From assembly GCA_014161675.1 (NCBI GenBank), contig GCA_014161675.1_4760.1: a DNA stretch of 64,000 nt; one strand, given 5' to 3'. The number at the start of each line of letters is the position of its first letter. Positions within the stretch are counted from its first letter, which is position 1. Under the pieces are notes generated by a model. The model worked only from the letters and a program-made list of their open reading frames with translations, did no database searches and had not been told where the DNA came from. Both the position numbers and the translations under genes were made by a program. Positions 47,002-58,093 of the stretch are shown piece after piece. This stretch comes from a phage.

Positions 47002-47485
47002 ATTTTGCTAAATCATTGCAATATTTTAGTGCCTTAGTTTGAAATTCTGCGCTGTTAAGTTCTTCATAACGGTCATAATCACCGTTTAATGCTGCCTTTC
47101 TTGCTTCTTGCTCTATCTGCATGTCAGACATGATAATACAGCGATCCCGTGCTTTCATCTTCTCAAGTTGTATAGACTCTTCTTTCTGCTTGCGCAATTC
47201 TTCTTGACGCTTCTTTTCTTCTTGTGCTTTCTCTTCCCGCGCTTCTTTGATTGCATCCTTGAACATCTGCGTTTGTGGTTCTAAACCAACTTTAACGCGA
47301 TCCACGTCTCGACGTTCCATTTTAGAAATAAAGCACGATTCGATCTGATCATCACTTGCATATGCTGCTTTACATTCACGAAGCAAGAAAACCGGATCTG
47401 ATTTAGCATTCATCATAGCTTCCATGTTGGCACAACCAGTAAGCATGAATGCAGCCGCAAGACCAATCAGTTTAATCATTTTCAT
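47000..47485 (-). CDS. predicted lipoprotein
   Basis: Signal peptide with lipobox 'LTGC'; charged helical region; last gene of the alt operon. Confidence 0.55.
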   Translation of the reverse strand: MKMIKLIGLAAAFMLTGCANMEAMMNAKSDPVFLLRECKAAYASDDQIESCFISKMERRDVDRVKVGLEPQTQMFKDAIKEAREEKAQEEKKRQEELRKQKEESIQLEKMKARDRCIIMSDMQIEQEARKAALNGDYDRYEELNSAEFQTKALKYCNDLAK

Positions 47486-48306
47486 TTAGTCACCTCACCG
47501 AAAATTGTAAATTGTCTACGATTCTCATCACCGAAAGATTCTACTACGTCGTTTACCTTGACGCAAGTCCCGCGCGGTAAAATTACTTCACATTCGCAAG
47601 GATTCCATGCAATTGACCCAACAACAAAACCTTTATGATCTTTTACGTCAATTACCCATGATACATTACAAGAATGTTGCATCTTTCCGGTCATTGATTC
47701 ATATCGATTCTCACAATAAAGGCTAGTGCTGTTTGATAACCATCCTCCAAAGATGATCGGTGTCATGCTGGTAGATACAAAGTTTTTAAAGGTAAACTCC
47801 TTATCTTCAATGATACGCTCTATTGTCTGAATGTCAAGATGTTGACCGCGATAAAGAGTACCGTTTAACTTTTCGGTTTTATCCATGACGCAATCCATCA
47901 AATCGACAATCTCTGATATCTCATCGGTCATGTCTTCTTCCCCTAAGAGAGCACCATTTACCCATTCGTATTGCTCAGACACATAATCACAGATTGCATT
48001 ATATTCTGCTGGGGTTATGTTGTTATGTTTGTAATGTTTGAATACATTATCTCCAAAGTCTTCGGAGTGTACTTCATACATCACATTAATGATTTTCTTG
48101 ACAAATCCATAATCTTGTGTCTCACGCTCAAGGAAGCGGATAACCTTCACATAATCATCAAAGTTAATCTGATCGCTGATCATCTCAGTGATCATGTAAC
48201 CATTAATACCCTCAATGTCATATGTTTCGATGTAATTATCCATACGTTCCATCATTGATTCGCGTGATTCTTCCGAAAGACGAAAATCCTGTAATTTCTT
48301 GAACAT
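47482..48306 (-). CDS. ADP-ribosyltransferase, Alt-like paralog (R-S-E class)
   Basis: 'LYRGQ', 'FVSTS', 'CECEVILPRG' (R, STS, ExE motifs); shares 'IFGGW' with Alt; GGGAGG RBS. Confidence 0.7.
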   Translation of the reverse strand: MFKKLQDFRLSEESRESMMERMDNYIETYDIEGINGYMITEMISDQINFDDYVKVIRFLERETQDYGFVKKIINVMYEVHSEDFGDNVFKHYKHNNITPAEYNAICDYVSEQYEWVNGALLGEEDMTDEISEIVDLMDCVMDKTEKLNGTLYRGQHLDIQTIERIIEDKEFTFKNFVSTSMTPIIFGGWLSNSTSLYCENRYESMTGKMQHSCNVSWVIDVKDHKGFVVGSIAWNPCECEVILPRGTCVKVNDVVESFGDENRRQFTIFGEVTK

Positions 48307-48385: not shown

Positions 48386-50437
48386 TTACATTTTAAATTT
48401 ATCTGGCATTGCGTCTACAGATACCAGATCAGCGATAAGCTGACGTAGAGTTGCCTTATCTGCTTTCTTACGTTCGGTTTTAGCTTCGCTAATGAAGCTG
48501 GAGAAAGACAGGTCAGAAGCAGGTTTAATAACACCTTCACGGATGAATGCATCACCGTCCGCGATCATCTCGCCAGATTCTTGTAATGCTGCCAGTTCAT
48601 TTTTGTTCATAATATGTGCCTCAATGTAATAAGTTTCTTGTGAATCCGTCGATGCCGTAGCACGAGTTACCGTATCAAAGGATAACACAACACCGCGAGG
48701 AAGTAAAATCTCGCATTCTTTGTAAGCAAATGCTTTGTTACCTACTGGCAATACAGGGATGTTTTCCGCGCCAGCAATGGAGAAAGCAACATTAGCGCCA
48801 CCTTCACCGCGAGAGCCAGCCATAGAGTCAACACCAGCAACGGCACTAGCCACGTTTGCATTCCAGCCGCCAAAAATGTTAGGTGCAAGGGAAGTGCTCA
48901 CATAGTTTTTAAAGTAAAACGCTTTTTGCTTACGTGCAGTTTCCCACATTTGCGACCGGAAGTCCATACCACGATACAGAATAGTACCCGGATCAAGTTT
49001 AACGCCATAGTTGGAGAAGGCATTATCCAGTGCATCGCACATCTTGACCAATTCTTCTGGATCTGCGATGCCTTCAAACTCTTCCAGCTTACGGTCGGTT
49101 AGGAAGTTGTTCATATTGATGTATGCTGCATCGGCATATTCGCTCAACACAAAACCTTCCGCGCCTGGCAGATCAAGATCAATATCTGCCATCATTTCAC
49201 CCATGTTGCTAGCAATTGCTTCAAACATACCGGAGGCAACATTACGTAGGGCATCGGTTTTAATCTGGGTGATATGACTACGCAGCATTTCAGCTTTTAC
49301 ATCTGCTGGCATAGACTGGTCTACTCGATCCATTGCCAGGGCGGTGATCTTGTTTTCGAATACTTCCTCGCTCATGATTTCTTTTAAGCGTTTGACCGAG
49401 GCTGCGATAACTTCCGCAGACAATGGATCATATTGATCCTGAACTTTTACCAGTTCGCTTACTGCGTATTTTGCATCGGCTTCGCTTTCAAAAATAGTAC
49501 GCATGAAACCATAGCGAGTGATAATATCACTTGTCCAGTCATTCAGAGAACGAGCGGTTGAACGTTCTAAGGCTTGACGGTCAATCAGAGTATTAAACTG
49601 TTTCTTAGGTTCTGCTTCGGTGATATCTTCTTCCGGTTTAAGATTAATTTTTTCTGGATGATTCACATAGTCGCTGTTATAGGTCGCTTGAGTTTTCAGC
49701 ATTTCTTCTTTAGTCAAACGAGATTTAGCCGCTACGCGTTGTTCTGCTTCCGCGTTTCGTTCTTCTTCTGACACAAGACTAGCCGCATATGCCTCATCTT
49801 TAGTCAGAGATTCACCAGTAGCCTTAGATACCCAGCGATCACCTAAATCACTTTCTACTTTAGTGAACAAGGATTCATCAAGTTTAATCCCTTTAATCTT
49901 ATCAATCGCCATCCCGCGACGCTTGACAACAACTAAAGCGATCTTTTTGCTGGTCATTACTTCCTGCTGGAATACTTCAAACTTCGGTGTACGACGCACC
50001 AAACGCTCTATAACGCGCTTAACCAGTTCGGTCTTACCTTTCATGCGGGATACGTTAAAACGGAACATAACAGCGTCTAATTGCGCTTTACGGGCTGTTT
50101 CCATAACCACATCAAAAGCACTTGACATAACTGCAATCGGGTTATCGCCTAGACCATTTTTAAGCTGTACAATACGACCGCTTTTGTTCATTTCGCACAG
50201 TACAACATGTGCGGTCTTGTCACCCATACGAATGATTTTAGGTGTTTTGTTGGTGAAGTTACAAAGACGGACAATCACATCTTTATCGCGTGTCTGTACT
50301 GCAAAAAGCTGTTTAGGATTCTGCTTAGGCTTTAAGCACTGTACCGGAGCAATCCTGCCAAAGTTTTCTTCCTCTTCCGTCAACAGCCATTTCTCGAAAG
50401 ATTCAATCATTAGATCGTCGATTTCTAAGTTAAACAT
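48386..50437 (-). CDS. alt: Alt ADP-ribosyltransferase
   Basis: 683 aa (T4 Alt 682); 'ILYRGM', 'YVSTS', 'ECEILLPRG'. Confidence 0.8.
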   Translation of the reverse strand: MFNLEIDDLMIESFEKWLLTEEEENFGRIAPVQCLKPKQNPKQLFAVQTRDKDVIVRLCNFTNKTPKIIRMGDKTAHVVLCEMNKSGRIVQLKNGLGDNPIAVMSSAFDVVMETARKAQLDAVMFRFNVSRMKGKTELVKRVIERLVRRTPKFEVFQQEVMTSKKIALVVVKRRGMAIDKIKGIKLDESLFTKVESDLGDRWVSKATGESLTKDEAYAASLVSEEERNAEAEQRVAAKSRLTKEEMLKTQATYNSDYVNHPEKINLKPEEDITEAEPKKQFNTLIDRQALERSTARSLNDWTSDIITRYGFMRTIFESEADAKYAVSELVKVQDQYDPLSAEVIAASVKRLKEIMSEEVFENKITALAMDRVDQSMPADVKAEMLRSHITQIKTDALRNVASGMFEAIASNMGEMMADIDLDLPGAEGFVLSEYADAAYINMNNFLTDRKLEEFEGIADPEELVKMCDALDNAFSNYGVKLDPGTILYRGMDFRSQMWETARKQKAFYFKNYVSTSLAPNIFGGWNANVASAVAGVDSMAGSRGEGGANVAFSIAGAENIPVLPVGNKAFAYKECEILLPRGVVLSFDTVTRATASTDSQETYYIEAHIMNKNELAALQESGEMIADGDAFIREGVIKPASDLSFSSFISEAKTERKKADKATLRQLIADLVSVDAMPDKFKM

Positions 50438-51040: not shown

Positions 51041-51559
51041 TTAGTTATTTTTTAATTGCTCATCTTGCAATAGGGCAATCACATGCTGGCGATGTTCTTC
51101 CGATTGAGGCACACCGAAAAAGTTTGTTTTGTAGAAATACTCTAATCGGTCTTCTCGTGTGCTCTCTTCCATCATGATCGCGGGTAGTCCGAGATTTCGG
51201 AAACGTCGCTTTTCTGCTGGCGTAAAATCACTGTAATACAACATAGAATCATCATTACCAGCAATGCTAAACTCATCCTTCATAAAGGAGAATATTGCGT
51301 TTAAACGCTGTTTACCGTCCACGATTTCGATCTCATAGCGAGAGCCATCATCAATCTTAGCCATTGCGATAGCACCAACCGGAAAATCATTAATCAGGTT
51401 TTCGATAAACATACGTTTGTTTTCTGTGTCCCATACTAAAGGACGCTGATAATCTGGGTTCATGTTGATATAGCCATCTTCTAACCACGCCTCATAAACA
51501 GAGATTACAAAGTTTTTAGTATTGGTATAGTAACGGCGTTTAGGTGTTAAACGGTTCAT
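51041..51559 (-). CDS. DUF262 / ParB-like (GmrSD N-domain-like) protein
   Basis: 'YQRPLVWDTENK...IVDGKQRLNAIFSFM' resembles the DUF262 DGQQR region; ATG 51559 with AGGAGA RBS preferred over TTG 51595. Confidence 0.5.
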   Translation of the reverse strand: MNRLTPKRRYYTNTKNFVISVYEAWLEDGYINMNPDYQRPLVWDTENKRMFIENLINDFPVGAIAMAKIDDGSRYEIEIVDGKQRLNAIFSFMKDEFSIAGNDDSMLYYSDFTPAEKRRFRNLGLPAIMMEESTREDRLEYFYKTNFFGVPQSEEHRQHVIALLQDEQLKNN

Positions 51560-53096: not shown

Positions 53097-53136
53097 TGTT
53101 TGATTCTCCTAAGTGGTATCTCGTCTTGATGGTTGT

Positions 53137-53165
53137 ATTGTAGGGGAGTTATCCTCCCCTGTCAA
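53137..53165 (-). promoter_or_regulatory. Early promoter unit 3 with palindromic spacer
   Basis: TTGACA, spacer GGGGAGGATAACTCCCC (17-bp palindrome), TACAAT. Confidence 0.55.
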
Positions 53166-53179
53166 CACTTTTTATAAAA

Positions 53180-53347
53180 TTATTTGTTAATTTCTGGTGC
53201 GTTGCTAGGATAGTAACCTTCTTTAACTCCGAGGTATTTCGCAACCATCCCTACAATCTTCTGTGCTACTACAATGTCAAATTTCAGATAATCTTCGCCG
53301 TGGGTTTCAATGATATATGCTTCACATGCTGCTTTAGTCTCGAACAT
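53180..53347 (-). CDS. small early protein (55 aa), paralog of 56438-56605
   Basis: 'MFETKAACEAYIIETHGEDYLKFDIVVAQKIVGMVAKYLGVKEGYYPSNAPEINK'; below the ORF-track cutoff. Confidence 0.55.
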   Translation of the reverse strand: MFETKAACEAYIIETHGEDYLKFDIVVAQKIVGMVAKYLGVKEGYYPSNAPEINK

Positions 53348-53380
53348 TTTGATTCTCCTATTTCGTTTCGGTATGTGTGT

Positions 53381-53409
53381 ATTATAGGGGATCTCCTGAT
53401 CCCCGTCAA
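53381..53409 (-). promoter_or_regulatory. Early promoter unit 4
   Basis: TTGACG, palindromic spacer GGGGATCAGGAGATCCC, TATAAT. Confidence 0.5.
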
Positions 53410-53423
53410 CAACTTTTTTAAAA

Positions 53424-53705
53424 TTATTCGTGATTAGTTTCGATGTTGTGCATTTTGCACCAGTTCAGCCAATCACCCAGATCCTGATAGCTAATGCTTT
53501 TATCTGCTGCCATCGTTTTTGTCTTGATACCCATATGTGCGTTATGAGTAAGCATTTTTACAGTGAACTCAATTTTATCACCTTTAGCTTTAACATCAAC
53601 CAGTTTGGTCCACTGGCTACCAGCGCCGCGAATGTTCATACCAACGATGTTTCCGATGTATGCTTCTTTGTTTTTCAGGATTTCGGTTGCTTTGATGAAT
53701 TTCAT
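53424..53705 (-). CDS. hypothetical early protein
   Basis: 93-aa ORF behind promoter unit 5. Confidence 0.5.
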   Translation of the reverse strand: MKFIKATEILKNKEAYIGNIVGMNIRGAGSQWTKLVDVKAKGDKIEFTVKMLTHNAHMGIKTKTMAADKSISYQDLGDWLNWCKMHNIETNHE

Positions 53706-53738
53706 TTTTGATTCTCCAGTTCGTTTCGGTATGTGTGT

Positions 53739-53768
53739 ATTATGCTATGTTCTTACTTTGGTGTCAAC
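53739..53768 (-). promoter_or_regulatory. Early promoter unit 5
   Basis: TTGACA, about 18 bp, CATAAT, conserved leader ACACACATACCGAAACGAACTGGAGAATC. Confidence 0.5.
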
Positions 53769-53775
53769 AACTTTT

Positions 53776-54045
53776 TTAGATATTTTCAGAAATAAATTTT
53801 AAAACTTGACGTAAATGTTTCTCATCTTTGATGGTAGCCGGAAGTTCTTCTTTTACTTCCTGTGCAAGATAGATATTTCCGTTCCAAGTGAAAGATCCGT
53901 CTTCGTTTACGCGATAGCTGAACATCCACTCGCAATCATTTTCGATTTCATATACACACAGAAGGGTGTAATCGTTAAAGCTATTGATTTCAAGGTCGAA
54001 GCCGTGACGTTTTGCAAAGTTGGTAGTGGTTTTAGTCAGTGTCAT
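53776..54045 (-). CDS. hypothetical early protein
   Basis: 89-aa ORF behind promoter unit 6. Confidence 0.5.
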   Translation of the reverse strand: MTLTKTTTNFAKRHGFDLEINSFNDYTLLCVYEIENDCEWMFSYRVNEDGSFTWNGNIYLAQEVKEELPATIKDEKHLRQVLKFISENI

Positions 54046-54085
54046 TGTTTGATTCTCCTAAGTGGTATCTCGTTTCGATGTGTGT

Positions 54086-54114
54086 ATTATGCTATAGGCC
54101 GGATCTGGTGTCAA
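54086..54114 (-). promoter_or_regulatory. Early promoter unit 6
   Basis: TTGACA, 17 bp, CATAAT. Confidence 0.5.
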
Positions 54115-54170
54115 CAACTTTTTTAAAAATTTGGGCAATAAAAAGCCGACACTAAGGTCGGCTAATAAAA

Positions 54171-54479
54171 TCATTTAGACAAATAATCATTCTGTGCAAT
54201 CCGGTCAGCATGTTCCGGCGTTACGTCAATCGCAATCACTTTAACGCGTGCTTTCTTGCGACCTGGGTTTTCTCGTAACCAGTGCTCATGACCGTGAACA
54301 TTTTTATACTGCGATGCTTCTTCGAAGGTACGGATCGGACCTGGGTAATCAGCGTAAAGGATCTCTAGATCTTCGGTGATGTAAAAATATACATCGTAAT
54401 TGCTGTTCTCTAGCTTAAGCAGAGACTTTCGGAACATTGGGAGATTTTCGCGGGTAAATTCAAAGATATTATCTTTCAT
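54171..54479 (-). CDS. HxHW-family small protein (paralog 1)
   Basis: 'FYITEDLEI...HGHEHWL...VIAIDV'; GAGGATAA RBS. Confidence 0.55.
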   Translation of the reverse strand: MKDNIFEFTRENLPMFRKSLLKLENSNYDVYFYITEDLEILYADYPGPIRTFEEASQYKNVHGHEHWLRENPGRKKARVKVIAIDVTPEHADRIAQNDYLSK

Positions 54480-54507
54480 AGTATTATCCTCAATAGTTGG
54501 ATGAAAA

Positions 54508-54524
54508 GGGGGCTTAACGCCCCC
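54508..54524 (-). terminator. Terminator hairpin (minus strand)
   Basis: GGGGGC-ttaac-GCCCCC; same core as hairpins at 16583 and 50484. Confidence 0.4.
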
Positions 54525-54529
54525 ATATA

Positions 54530-54817
54530 TTAAAACAGCCCTTCCTGTACACCGTAGTAGAGTTCGTCACTGATAATTTCATTAATGCGACGGTGTGCAT
54601 ATTCCTGATTTGCGAAGTTGTCAGCAAGTTCTACTTTAGTTTCGCCGTCATGAGTCCATTTAGTGATAACTTTACCATCTGCAAATTTGAAGTTGAACTC
54701 TTTAGCTACTGCATCGCGTACCAGACGTGCGAACTTGTTGTTACGGATTGCATTGTCTGTTTCGTTTGCAGCGTGAGCAAATTTGTTAACTTTCAGAGTG
54801 ATAGTAATGTATGCCAT
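54530..54817 (-). CDS. hypothetical early protein
   Basis: 95-aa ORF behind promoter unit 7. Confidence 0.5.
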   Translation of the reverse strand: MAYITITLKVNKFAHAANETDNAIRNNKFARLVRDAVAKEFNFKFADGKVITKWTHDGETKVELADNFANQEYAHRRINEIISDELYYGVQEGLF

Positions 54818-54863
54818 AATTTGATTCTCCTAGTTAGAAAGTGTATATCGTTTCGATGGGGAT

Positions 54864-54892
54864 ATTATGCTATATCCCCGATCCGGTGTCAA
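54864..54892 (-). promoter_or_regulatory. Early promoter unit 7
   Basis: TTGACA, 17 bp, CATAAT; inverted repeat GGGGATAT/ATATCCCC spans the -10. Confidence 0.5.
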
Positions 54893-54898
54893 CACTTT

Positions 54899-55192
54899 TT
54901 ATAAAATAATTTTTTGATATTTTTCTATGATGTTCGTGTAAGTCACATCAACCGCTAGCACCGTTGCTTCGAATCCACCGTTTAGCCAATGGCTATGATC
55001 ATGATCGTGAAAGAAACCTAGACCAGTACGAAGACCTTCTTTATATTCTGCGCGTACATTCAGTTTGTCGTCGATAAACAGATAAAACCATGAATTTTTA
55101 CTAGGATTGATGATACAACCTTTCAGATTAGGGAGAATATCACGACTAAGAATAAACTTATCACCTACTTTGAACATAATATTAGTCCTCAC
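54899..55192 (-). CDS. HxHW-family small protein (paralog 2)
   Basis: 'FYLFIDDKLNV...HDHDHSHWL...VLAVDV'. Confidence 0.55.
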   Translation of the reverse strand: MRTNIMFKVGDKFILSRDILPNLKGCIINPSKNSWFYLFIDDKLNVRAEYKEGLRTGLGFFHDHDHSHWLNGGFEATVLAVDVTYTNIIEKYQKIIL

Positions 55193-55502
55193 TTATAAGG
55201 TCAAACCAATTGTTTTTCGCATAATGCTTAATGCGTGCTTGATCTGCTTCCGCTGGTGATAGATTCCATGCAACCACTACAACTTCTGACGCATCGTCAT
55301 CCGTTTCTGATACCCAATGATTGTGATTCATACAGTTATTTGCTATCGAGTGAGCAAATGATTTCATCACTGGAGACGTATAATCATAGTAACGGATTTT
55401 CAGATTTTCATCAACGTACAAATAGATCGTATAAGGTTTATATTCAGTAACCAGTAACAGACAGTTACGCAATTCTGGGAAAATATTTTTAGTTAATTTC
55501 AT
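55182..55502 (-). CDS. HxHW-family small protein (paralog 3)
   Basis: 'YLYVDENLKI...NHNHWV...VVVVAWNL'. Confidence 0.5.
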   Translation of the reverse strand: MKLTKNIFPELRNCLLLVTEYKPYTIYLYVDENLKIRYYDYTSPVMKSFAHSIANNCMNHNHWVSETDDDASEVVVVAWNLSPAEADQARIKHYAKNNWFDLISED

Positions 55503-55716
55503 ATTCTAGTTCTCCGTAATACACGGTAATCCATTTTTCTTCATACTTTGTATCTTTCCAACACACAATCCCGTTTACTGTGCAATCTTTGGAATTGACG
55601 AATGATTCATATTGTTCTGCATCTTCCATCATTGCATGAGCGGTCTTTTCATCGAATATATCGCAGATCGCTTTATATGCTCGATAATCTTTAAATTTGC
55701 TCATAATTAAGACCAC
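55489..55716 (-). CDS. small early protein, tandem duplicate A
   Basis: 'MSKFKDYRAYKAI...MMEDAEQ...GIVCWKDTKYEEKWI' paralogous to the adjacent ORF. Confidence 0.5.
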   Translation of the reverse strand: MVLIMSKFKDYRAYKAICDIFDEKTAHAMMEDAEQYESFVNSKDCTVNGIVCWKDTKYEEKWITVYYGELEYEIN

Positions 55717-55922
55717 TCAAGAGTTTTTGAAAACACATCTATCCATTGTTGAGTATATGCGGTTTCTTTCCATGATACAATACCAGTCGAATAATGGTTT
55801 TTGTTTCCAGAAAAGGACGGGCATTTTGAGGCATCTTCCATCATCTTTTCGGCGAACTCTGGTGCGTATACTCGCAGGATCTGTTGATATGCTTTGTATT
55901 CTTTAAATTTGCTCATAATCAT
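55707..55922 (-). CDS. small early protein, tandem duplicate B
   Basis: 'MSKFKEYKAYQQI...MMEDASK...GIVSWKETAYTQQWI'. Confidence 0.5.
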   Translation of the reverse strand: MIMSKFKEYKAYQQILRVYAPEFAEKMMEDASKCPSFSGNKNHYSTGIVSWKETAYTQQWIDVFSKTLEWS

Positions 55923-56181
55923 TCACTACCTTATCAGCTTCTTTTGTTGTTTTTACATCAACTGCGATAACTCGTAAAGGTTCGTCATGGTTCCACCAGT
56001 GGTCATGAATATCAGCTTGTGATTTATCACCAAAGGAATCACGAATATCATTTTTACATTTATAGCTAATGTGACCTTCATAGTCAACATAAAGGTAATT
56101 ATCGAAAATCGGCGTTTTTAAGATCATACCGAAAAATCTTTCTTTGTGTGTCTTATCCAGCGTTGCAGTAATTCGCATCAT
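55903..56181 (-). CDS. HxHW-family small protein (paralog 4)
   Basis: 'YLYVDYEGHI...HDHWW...VIAVDV'. Confidence 0.55.
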   Translation of the reverse strand: MMRITATLDKTHKERFFGMILKTPIFDNYLYVDYEGHISYKCKNDIRDSFGDKSQADIHDHWWNHDEPLRVIAVDVKTTKEADKVVNDYEQI

Positions 56182-56193
56182 AATATATTCCTC

Positions 56194-56373
56194 TTAGAAA
56201 GGGATGGTCATTTCTTGAGCTTGTACGTTCTCGTTAGGATTAAACTTCATCCAGCCGATATTGTCTACCAGCATATGCACATTTTTATCATATCCTACGT
56301 GGGTAGTCAATACTGTATGTGCTTTACCTTCAATGATGAGTTCCATGTACTTCTGAACTTCGATAGCTTTCAT
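56194..56373 (-). CDS. small hypothetical early protein (59 aa)
   Basis: Hand-translated 'MKAIEVQKYMELIIEGKAHTVL...'; behind promoter unit 8. Confidence 0.4.
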   Translation of the reverse strand: MKAIEVQKYMELIIEGKAHTVLTTHVGYDKNVHMLVDNIGWMKFNPNENVQAQEMTIPF

Positions 56374-56405
56374 TTTGATTCTCCGTTTGTTGTCTTGATG
56401 GGAGT

Positions 56406-56434
56406 ATCTTACTACTCCCTTTAATCATTGTCAA
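56406..56434 (-). promoter_or_regulatory. Early promoter unit 8
   Basis: TTGACA, 17-bp spacer with GGAGTA/TACTCC inverted repeat, TAAGAT. Confidence 0.45.
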
Positions 56435-56437
56435 CTA

Positions 56438-56605
56438 TTATTTGTTAATTTCTGGTGCGTTGCTCGGATAGTAACCTTCTTTAACACCCAGATATTTTGC
56501 GACCATTCCGGTGATCTTCTGTGCTACTACGATATCGAATTTCAGGTAATCTTCACCGTGGTTTGCTACAATGTATGCTTCGCATTCTGCTTTAGTCTGG
56601 AACAT
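56438..56605 (-). CDS. small early protein (55 aa), paralog of 53180-53347
   Basis: Internal ATG at 56605 gives 'MFQTKAECEAYIVANHGEDYLKFDIVVAQK...', near-identical to the 53180-53347 product. Confidence 0.55.
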   Translation of the reverse strand: MFQTKAECEAYIVANHGEDYLKFDIVVAQKITGMVAKYLGVKEGYYPSNAPEINK

Positions 56606-56638
56606 TTTTATTCTCCCATATCTCGTTGGTATGTGTGC

Positions 56639-56668
56639 ATTATAGGGGATCACCGATCCCCTGTCAAC
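56639..56668 (-). promoter_or_regulatory. Early promoter unit 9 with palindromic spacer
   Basis: TTGACA, GGGGATCGGTGATCCCC, TATAAT; spacer identical to units 2 and 10. Confidence 0.55.
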
Positions 56669-56672
56669 AACT

Positions 56673-56966
56673 TTATAATGCTTTATATGCGTATTTCATA
56701 AATTTGTCTGCCACTTCATTGGCATGTTCAGATTCTACGCCTGATTCGAGAACAATAGCTAGGTCGGTTTCGTCATTCCCGCCGTACCAATGATTTGATG
56801 TTCGATTTTTTTCAATTGGAAATTGGTCACTTTTATCTGTGCGACAAAATACATCTAAATGCTCGTCGATGTAAAAGATCCAATCTTCATAAAGAATAAC
56901 GGTATTAGCCAGATTTTTATTGCCTTCAACGAAAGGTTCGGCTACAAACAAATTAGTATGTTCCAT
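56673..56966 (-). CDS. HxHW-family small protein (paralog 5, divergent)
   Basis: 'IFYIDEHLDV...SNHWY...LAIVLESG'. Confidence 0.45.
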   Translation of the reverse strand: MEHTNLFVAEPFVEGNKNLANTVILYEDWIFYIDEHLDVFCRTDKSDQFPIEKNRTSNHWYGGNDETDLAIVLESGVESEHANEVADKFMKYAYKAL

Positions 56967-57023
56967 AGTATTTTCCTCAATTTGTGGGAGAGTATTGCCC
57001 CTCCCGATGTCTGTTATATTACA

Positions 57024-57344
57024 TTACACAAAATGGCGTTTCAATGCTTCTTTTGCGGTTCCGCTAAGACTTTCGATCTCGCCTGGCATAACATCAACTG
57101 CCAGAACTTCTACAACATCCTCTGACCCCAACCAGTGAGTATGACCTTTGTAGAACTTGATAACCAGACTACCTTCCTCATCCCATTTAACGCTATCGCT
57201 AGCCCACCACACATCACCGTCGATAAAGTTGATGTAAAGCACACTACGCCACATTGAATTAATTACTTTCAATACTGCGCCTTTCATATCTTCCACGGTG
57301 TGGTCTTCCATTTTGAAGACCTCGCCTACCTGAACTTTTGCCAT
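57024..57344 (-). CDS. HxHW-family small protein (paralog 6)
   Basis: 'LYINFIDGDV...GHTHWL...VLAVDV'. Confidence 0.55.
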   Translation of the reverse strand: MAKVQVGEVFKMEDHTVEDMKGAVLKVINSMWRSVLYINFIDGDVWWASDSVKWDEEGSLVIKFYKGHTHWLGSEDVVEVLAVDVMPGEIESLSGTAKEALKRHFV

Positions 57345-57361
57345 TTAGTCACCTCTCTTTA

Positions 57362-57541
57362 TTACATAACAATCACGCCAGCCGTTGAAAGTTGATGTTT
57401 CAACTGAGCATTTTCTGCTACTGTCAAATCAATGATTTCTTGTGACGCTGCAATCATATAGCCATTGGTGATATTGTTTTGCATCAGTTCAATGGTTTCT
57501 TCGTTGTAGCGGATTTTAGCGATGATTTCGTTGAAGTTCAT
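57362..57541 (-). CDS. small hypothetical early protein (59 aa)
   Basis: Hand-translated 'MNFNEIIAKIRYNEETIELMQNNITNGY...'; behind promoter unit 10. Confidence 0.4.
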   Translation of the reverse strand: MNFNEIIAKIRYNEETIELMQNNITNGYMIAASQEIIDLTVAENAQLKHQLSTAGVIVM

Positions 57542-57575
57542 GTTTGATTCTCCTAGTTCGTTTCGGTATGTGTGT

Positions 57576-57604
57576 AGTATAGGGGATCACCGATCCCCTG
57601 TCAA
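57576..57604 (-). promoter_or_regulatory. Early promoter unit 10 with palindromic spacer
   Basis: TTGACA, GGGGATCGGTGATCCCC, TATACT; conserved leader to AGGAGAATCAAACATG. Confidence 0.55.
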
Positions 57605-57616
57605 CAACTTTTTGAA

Positions 57617-58093
57617 TTATTTTTCTTGATGCTCGCGATCGTACTTTTCGAAATAAAATTCTACTGGCTGGTCGTGGATTGACAGCAAGCCAAAGCGTTT
57701 AGCCGCTCGCAATCCCATATTGCGCTGAATGTACTTCTGGAAGTTCTCGCGTATACACTTACGCCAGGATTCTAAGCCCATGCAGCTTTTATAAAGATTG
57801 CATTGCACACACGCCGGATTCATGTTATCAAGTATATCATGCTCCGGTTTATGCATTCCTACAACCTTATACTTCCACGATCCATCATCATTACGGGCAA
57901 TTCGTCCATTTTCATCATAGACTACCTTTGAGCGTCGCAATACTGGTTTGATGTGGTCTGCGTGCCAGCGATCCCCTAGTTCCTCGCCACAATAGGCACA
58001 ACGTCCACCATATTTCATTTTCAGGATCTGGCGTTGATCTTTCTTTGACAATTTTTTAGGTTTAGGGGCTTTCGCCCCTTCATTATCACACAT
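57617..58093 (-). CDS. HNH endonuclease (putative free-standing homing endonuclease)
   Basis: 'CAYCGEEL...HADHIKP...N...CVQCN' HNH/zinc motif; start overlaps ligase stop. Confidence 0.65.
   Translation of the reverse strand: MCDNEGAKAPKPKKLSKKDQRQILKMKYGGRCAYCGEELGDRWHADHIKPVLRRSKVVYDENGRIARNDDGSWKYKVVGMHKPEHDILDNMNPACVQCNLYKSCMGLESWRKCIRENFQKYIQRNMGLRAAKRFGLLSIHDQPVEFYFEKYDREHQEK

Follow-up and report, generated by a model that had tools for sequence, protein, structure and literature searches.

One HxHW-motif family of six tandem paralogs in the ligase-alt region of an RB49-like phage

Between positions 54171 and 57344 of a phage sequence of 64,000 nucleotides (GenBank assembly GCA_014161675.1, contig GCA_014161675.1_4760.1; this whole stretch is referred to as the window), six open reading frames (ORFs) coding for small proteins follow one another on the minus strand, which raises the question of whether they are related and what such a series might do for the phage. 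The window belongs to a Krischvirus genome (RB49-like; Straboviridae, T4-type), with 94-97% identity to RB49-like phages, and the array occupies the variable "hyperplastic" region between gene 30 (DNA ligase) and alt. A first-pass annotation, made from the letters alone, had taken the six ORFs for diverged copies of one early gene. They are indeed true paralogs and were named p6 to p1 in the order of their transcription.

As pairwise identities among the six copies are only 20-32%, paralogy was tested by a leave-one-out approach, in which a hidden Markov model (HMM) built from five copies was searched against the 582 stop-to-stop ORFs of at least 40 aa from all six frames of the window. Irrespective of which copy was omitted, it was retrieved as the top non-training match (6/6), with E values of 5.7e-14 (p1), 5.3e-8 (p2), 1.1e-11 (p3), 8e-6 (p4), 2.6e-4 (p5), and 1.5e-6 (p6); that of the next-best ORF was always at least 0.08. 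Homology is thus significant for every copy, and the six-frame HMM search revealed no seventh member in the window. The PHROGs database divides the six copies into five families (9345, 17255, 15972, 15965, and 16486), all of "unknown function". Weak cross-matches to the PHROGs link p1-p4 directly and p6 to the family of p2 (E 0.009); p5 matches only its own PHROG.

Of the three motifs initially proposed as the common scaffold, only HxHW is near-invariant. The pattern H.HW occurs five times in the 51,052 residues of the six-frame window ORFs, each time in the family (shuffled sequences: mean 0.44, maximum 3). The remaining copy, p5, reads SNHW in the window, and most of its orthologs have HNHW. 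Of 36 family sequences compared, all have the second His and the Trp, and 34 have the first His. The proposed C-terminal motif, [VI][LI]A[VI]DV, proved degenerate (found in four of the six copies), as did the strict form of the strand motif (two of six). Further well-conserved positions are Y-I-D on β3, V-x-A-x-x-V on β5, and one Ala in the last helix.

All six ORFs are present on the minus strand (Table 1). For p1 and p3-p6, the boundaries originally assigned were retained; for p2, the GTG at 55192 was replaced by the ATG at 55177 as the most likely start, because the orthologs and the RB49 annotation have 92 aa, the alignment with PHROG 17255 begins at residue 6, and GAGGA, a Shine-Dalgarno (SD) site, is located 9 nt upstream. 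Each of the six genes is preceded by an SD site, and several starts overlap the preceding stop. The encoded proteins, with pI values of 4.5-6.9, range from acidic to neutral; they are soluble and have no conserved Cys. Their RB49 orthologs are each annotated as "hypothetical protein".

Table 1. Coordinates of the array members, the interspersed ORFs, and the transcription signals (PeSL, promoter-early stem-loop).
Feature	Position	Strand	Description
p6	57024-57344	-	106 aa, HTHW; second gene of module I; SD GAGAGGTG upstream; RB49p208 ortholog
p5	56673-56966	-	97 aa, SNHW here; third gene of module I; RB49p206 ortholog
p4	55903-56181	-	92 aa, HDHW; module II; RB49p203 ortholog
p3	55182-55502	-	106 aa, HNHW; start overlaps orf75 end; module II; RB49p200 ortholog
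p2	54899-55177	-	92 aa from corrected ATG, HSHW; module II; RB49p199 ortholog
p1	54171-54479	-	102 aa, HEHW; module III; RB49p197 ortholog
orf59a	57362-57541	-	Unrelated small ORF, first gene of module I; lost with p6 and p5 in phiS
orf55	56438-56605	-	Unrelated PeSL-led small ORF, module II; 89%-identical second copy at 53180-53347
orf59b	56194-56373	-	Unrelated PeSL-led small ORF, module II
orf71	55707-55922	-	Between p4 and p3; tandem paralog of orf75
orf75	55489-55704	-	Between p4 and p3; tandem paralog of orf71
orf95	54530-54817	-	Unrelated PeSL-led small ORF, first gene of module III; no Pfam match
PeSL, module I	57543-57616	-	TTGACA, GGGGATC..GATCCCC hairpin, TATACT, untranslated region, AGGAGAATCAAAC-ATG; drives orf59a, then p6 and p5; left arm of phiS deletion junction
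PeSL, module II start	56606-56679	-	Between p5 and orf55; 12/12 promoter match
Weaker PeSL-like promoter	56385-56434	-	TTGACA-17-TAAGAT, hairpin over -10; before orf59b, then p4
PeSL, module III	54843-54906	-	After p2; drives orf95, then p1
PeSL, downstream array boundary	54065-54128	-	After p1
Hairpin	56986-57005	-	-13.3 kcal/mol; between p6 and p5; then p1-type leader ATTGAGGAAAATACT-ATG
Terminator-like GC hairpin with U-run	54508-54524	-	-14.4 kcal/mol; between orf95 and p1; then leader ATTGAGGATAATACT-ATG
Terminator-like hairpin with U-run	54144-54163	-	Directly after p1

The first-pass annotation had not recognised the family, and neither did Pfam, NCBIfam, PADLOC, or the PDB. Scans of the six proteins against the former three, and of 33 members against Pfam, yielded sub-threshold noise only (such as PROCT, TTL, and an ATPase epsilon family), and the best match of a profile search against PDB sequences was an AAA ATPase fragment (E 0.62). 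AlphaFold2 models of p6 (predicted local distance difference test score, pLDDT, 90.7; predicted template modelling score, pTM, 0.84) and p1 (pLDDT 83.8; pTM 0.78), which are independent of each other, have the order of core elements in common. The family is accordingly predicted to be one compact α/β domain, composed of β1, a short helix, β2-β4, a variable segment, the HxHW turn, β5, and a C-terminal helix. Foldseek comparison with BFVD retrieved only family members at E ≤ 5e-3; the uncharacterised phage proteins pYD6-A (E 0.025) and Henu7 (E 0.12) came behind. AcrIIA7, ModTad2, the Tas1 immunity protein, Cif, and other papain-like enzymes were weak structural neighbours of both models, and SH3-like barrels of that of p6, none of them significant.

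Several identities were considered and not accepted. The p2 ortholog P0072 bears the name "KOW2-KOW3 of Spt5" in its source; this name is not supported, as neither a match to the KOW profile nor one to an SH3-like barrel fold was obtained. A DUF2829 identity was not adopted, given that the respective Pfam profile had no match, and neither was a papain-like one, as the structural resemblance was not significant and no Cys is conserved. The HxH sites of cupins (G-x5-HxH-x3,4-E) and metallo-β-lactamases (HxHxDH) were discarded as well, as the full ligand motif and the fold were lacking.

The family is narrowly distributed. A word-indexed profile search of 5.8 billion proteins resulted in 85 matches, all of them orthologs of one of the six copies with at least 54% identity. 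When 1.84 billion cluster representatives were searched exhaustively with a HMMER profile, only 22 proteins had E ≤ 1e-3; ∼19 of them were genuine (∼70-130 aa, with 203 aa in a single two-domain fusion), from Krischvirus-like phages only. A broadened profile search added no match with a name or a domain, and IMG/VR contained no match to single distant members used as queries. In cultured phages, the family is confined to Krischvirus (57 records). The fusion (P0087) lies at 820-1434 of L003, a 2.1-kb contig with five domains in four adjacent ORFs, and contains two family domains head-to-tail in a single ORF, a hint that the domains may function in dimeric or larger assemblies.

Are the six paralogs early genes, as was initially claimed, and is each mostly under control of its own promoter? 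The region is governed by cassettes described for RB49 and phi1 as PeSLs (Arbiol 2010, PMC2839356). The minus strand has eight of them from 53116 to 57616, of which five are inside the array or at its borders, and 10-12 of 12 promoter positions are matched. Their layout comprises an AT-rich stretch, TTGAC(A/G), a GGGGATC..GATCCCC hairpin within the 17-nt spacer, TATAAT or TATACT, a conserved untranslated region, and AGGAGAATCAAA-ATG. RB49 PeSL206/205, the equivalent of the cassette at the start of module II, was assayed as a very strong promoter, and a PeSL stem-loop acted as a strong terminator (PMC2839356). Three transcription units can be delineated. Module I consists of a PeSL, orf59a, p6, a weak promoter-like site with a hairpin, and p5. 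Module II comprises a PeSL, orf55, a PeSL-like promoter, orf59b, p4, orf71, orf75, p3, and p2, with stops and starts overlapping or nearly abutting, and module III a PeSL, orf95, a hairpin with U-run, p1, and a terminator. None of the six family genes directly follows a PeSL; they occupy second to sixth positions within the three units, and each near-consensus sigma-70 promoter (11-12 of 12 positions matched) directly precedes one of the other small ORFs. Of the six, p5 alone is preceded by an individual promoter-like site, which is weak (57044-57016; 9/12 matches). The notion of mostly individual promoters was therefore abandoned.

The proposed early expression fared better, as the family resides among early-type transcription units of an accessory region; we infer the timing from the promoter type and the published PeSL assays. 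It is well founded, because the promoters are of the PeSL type, because no T4-type late promoter (TATAAATA) was found in the array, and because neither motA nor middle promoters were found in RB49, where novel ORFs cluster with early genes (PMC1524935). The genes p1 and p5 have a near-identical leader, ATTGAGGAWAATACT-ATG (54480-54500 and 56967-56985, minus strand), in each case behind a stable GC hairpin; leader and hairpin may constitute a second, promoter-less type of repeated cassette.

Comparison with relatives revealed that individual modules come and go. Copy number ranges from two, in the distant relative L013, to six. RB49, SFHK24, and Brandy have all six copies in conserved order. 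In phiS, which has four, the orf59a-p6-p5 module is absent, and the junction is a single chimeric PeSL, in which the 5′ flank of the HNH/orf59a cassette runs into orf55. At the p3/p2 slot, JSE, KMB43, and the 169-kb metagenomic contig L004 carry other alleles of the family, only 29-54% identical within a background of 95-100% identity; this swap ends at the PeSL of module III, on one side only. In JSE, p1 is frameshifted and p5 N-terminally truncated, and p1 is also truncated in kvi. Alleles of p1 and p5 differ by 8-30% between relatives (neighbouring genes, 0-3%), and because dS is raised as well as dN, they appear to have been imported. With module loss, allele replacement, and frameshifted copies, the paralogs turn over as was to be expected for a family of an accessory region.

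This turnover is superimposed on old duplications. L013, whose ligase is 72% identical to that of the window, shares the PeSL sequence and the ligase-alt region with the window but has two members only, both of the p5 class. In a neighbour-joining tree (without bootstrap, and thus only suggestive), distant members fall into p5, p2, p6, p4, and p1/p3 classes, of which p5 is the most widespread. As these classes are common to phages whose copies are only 28-48% identical, the duplications are old, and a recent, arms-race style expansion is not supported; recent "accordion" amplification was rejected for the same reason. Sequence comparison suggests that the classes predate the lineage splits and stay distinct, with individual modules gained, lost, and exchanged. 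The family is under purifying selection, with dN/dS of 0.09-0.22 for p6, p5, p4, and p1 (0.09 for p4 compared with L004). Within classes, most substitutions lie in the segment directly N-terminal to HxHW, as do all internal indels but one (one residue, immediately behind the motif of p1).

The ORFs between the family genes also bear traces of duplication and recombination. A 238-nt segment occurs twice on the minus strand (53179-53416 and 56437-56674; 84% nucleotide identity), each copy comprising a 55-aa ORF (89% amino acid identity) and a PeSL, and is a second duplicated module in the region of the array. The proteins of orf71 and orf75 are 44% identical and have the N-terminus MSKFK-Y-AY in common. 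A homolog in the distant contig L011 (59-328) is located directly upstream of a p1/p3-class member, as is orf75 relative to p3 in the window, which may point to a functional link; another, in L013 (9403-9657), does not adjoin any family member. A fixed, toxin/antitoxin-like pairing with neighbouring ORFs was considered and rejected, as orf59a, orf59b, and orf95 are mutually unrelated and only the orf71/75-p1/p3 adjacency recurs, in L011 and not in L013. In P0083 (71 aa; an 848-bp ENA contig), the N-terminus of orf59b (MKAIEVQKY) is fused to the C-terminal 62 residues of p6; recombination therefore joined genes that in the window are non-adjacent and in the opposite order.

What, then, could the six proteins do? 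We propose, with our confidence evenly divided, that they are dispensable early host-interference proteins, each paralog binding a different host protein or defence component. Host sigma-70-type PeSL promoters would drive their early expression as downstream genes of three small polycistronic modules, and recombination between PeSLs would add, remove, and swap such modules in the hyperplastic region. The invariant HxHW turn would serve as the common anchor or functional site and the hypervariable loop beside it as the determinant of specificity. Proteins binding host targets fit best because a fixed anchor is combined with a hypervariable loop, and because of early expression, dispensability, allele replacement, and the narrow distribution among lineages. 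A further-reaching proposal is that the array is an anti-defence or host-takeover island built from one new fold, the six classes of which would each neutralise another host target, of immunity or housekeeping, via HxHW and the class-specific loop, and that Krischvirus phages would tune their host range by swapping PeSL cassettes; this we regard as tentative and rather doubtful.

Several points weigh against host interference. The profile and structure searches found no homology-based link between the family and a host target or defence system, and PADLOC, which covers defence systems, not anti-defence proteins, matched none of the six. No transcript data for the six genes were found in the searchable literature, early timing being deduced from the promoter type. 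The hairpin with U-run before p1 and the hairpin before p5 could limit early expression. A housekeeping-like role within the phage would fit old, stably kept classes under purifying selection equally well, and HxHW might be purely structural.

Among other explanations, metal binding is the one that survives best, and it is still unlikely. Zn, Ni, or Fe would be coordinated by the HxH pair, perhaps together with the conserved D/N on β3/β5 or across the interface of a dimer, making the protein a metal-dependent enzyme or a factor that sequesters or delivers the metal. However, further conserved ligands are absent, and either D or N is found at the two candidate polar positions, a mild argument against a classical metal site. 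Sponges of the Tad2/AcrIIA7 type, which as oligomers would sequester the signalling nucleotides of defence systems, His and Trp being stacked on the bound ligand, are very unlikely. AcrIIA7 and Tad2 constitute one family (DUF2829) of signal-molecule sponges; these are also small phage α/β proteins and, among the weak structural neighbours, those that recur most for both models, but that similarity is sub-threshold, comes without a profile match, and is the only basis for this explanation.

It is similarly improbable that the proteins regulate transcription, translation, or replication of the phage itself, or mimic DNA in order to block nucleases. Several copies are acidic (charge of p5, ∼-11; of p6, ∼-7), some orthologs have D/E-rich tails, and the genes adjoin those for replication and modification (ligase, methyltransferase, alt). 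Yet acidity is not family-wide (p1, only -2; p2, neutral), neither a nucleic acid-binding domain nor a basic surface signature nor a match to KOW or another RNA-binding Pfam family is present, and whole modules are dispensable in natural isolates. That the copies are neutral passengers, which bring the phage little benefit and persist mainly through PeSL-mediated duplication and mini-circle shuffling, accords with their location in the most recombinogenic part of the genome, with natural losses and frameshifts, and with the published PeSL mini-circle mechanism, but has little probability, being contradicted by purifying selection, by a motif invariant across members only ∼20% identical, and by six classes whose order is kept in most Krischvirus genomes and which are recognisable in more distant phages.

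Small early proteins that interfere with the host or its defences are familiar from T4, e.g., Arn, IPI*, Dmd, Stp, Alc, and AsiA. The family resembles these in size, predicted early expression from strong promoters, location in a variable region, dispensability in laboratory hosts, and lineage-specific distribution. No similarity to them in sequence or fold was detected, the profile search reaching only Krischvirus-like members, and none of the T4 examples is known to form a six-member paralog array. Paralog expansion of viral host-interaction genes is known from the "gene accordions" of poxviruses, which likewise consist of tandem copies of small accessory genes in a variable region. Accordions, however, are recent, near-identical amplifications, whereas the copies described here are old, have classes in distant relatives, and are under purifying selection.

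The closest known counterparts are the PeSL-flanked ORFan modules of RB49 and phi1 (PMC2839356; PMC4122927), which have the genome type, the region, and the cassettes (sigma-70 promoter, G(n)-loop-C(n) hairpin, SD) in common with the window. Insertions and deletions bounded by PeSLs, as reported there, also occur here, the loss in phiS having left a chimeric PeSL. The family genes, however, are the downstream genes of the units and not the PeSL-led ones. In both studies (Arbiol 2010, PMC2839356; Comeau 2014, PMC4122927), the ORFs were treated as unrelated orphans; the word "paralog" is absent, and the single instance of "duplicat-" refers to duplicate cultures. Neither a functional study of these ORFs nor their description as one HxHW family without a detectable fold relative was found in the searchable literature. 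Thus, the region, the PeSL cassettes, and the plasticity have been published before, and what is new is the recognition of a single family; that it consists of small early accessory genes is not in itself surprising.

The genes flanking the array complete the picture of the locus. Upstream are gene 30.3, the DNA ligase gene (gene 30), and an HNH endonuclease gene; downstream are a methyltransferase-like gene, a GmrSD_N-domain gene, and two genes for Alt-type ADP-ribosyltransferases. The HNH endonuclease gene (57617-58093, minus strand) shares 8 nt with the 3′ end of the ligase gene. In L013, it is kept at the position adjoining the ligase gene and is, with 86% amino acid identity, better conserved than the ligase itself (72%). 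The 172-aa product of 51041-51559 (minus strand) has a match to GmrSD restriction endonucleases (Pfam PF03235, E 4e-20) that is limited to their N-terminal, DUF262-type domain; such a protein is unexpected in a phage and might have a decoy or exclusion function. The two adjacent ADP-ribosyltransferase genes (47482-48306 and 48386-50437, minus strand) code for Alt (683 aa) and a 274-aa paralog, a duplication already in the literature (RB49ORF183c, PMC1524935).

RB49-like phages are common on E. coli and Shigella and used in therapy cocktails, and more than half of their genes are orphans. Five separate "unknown" PHROGs are here merged into a single family, which has an invariant motif and a confident model and for which no fold match was obtained. 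With transcription units and natural presence/absence variants defined, six anonymous ORFs become tractable; natural knock-outs (phiS, JSE, kvi) and allele swaps (JSE, KMB43) exist for comparisons of host range. If a role in anti-defence or host takeover is not borne out, the genes represent an ordinary orphan family in a known variable region. If it is, they would provide a new fold and an example of sub-functionalisation among paralogs.

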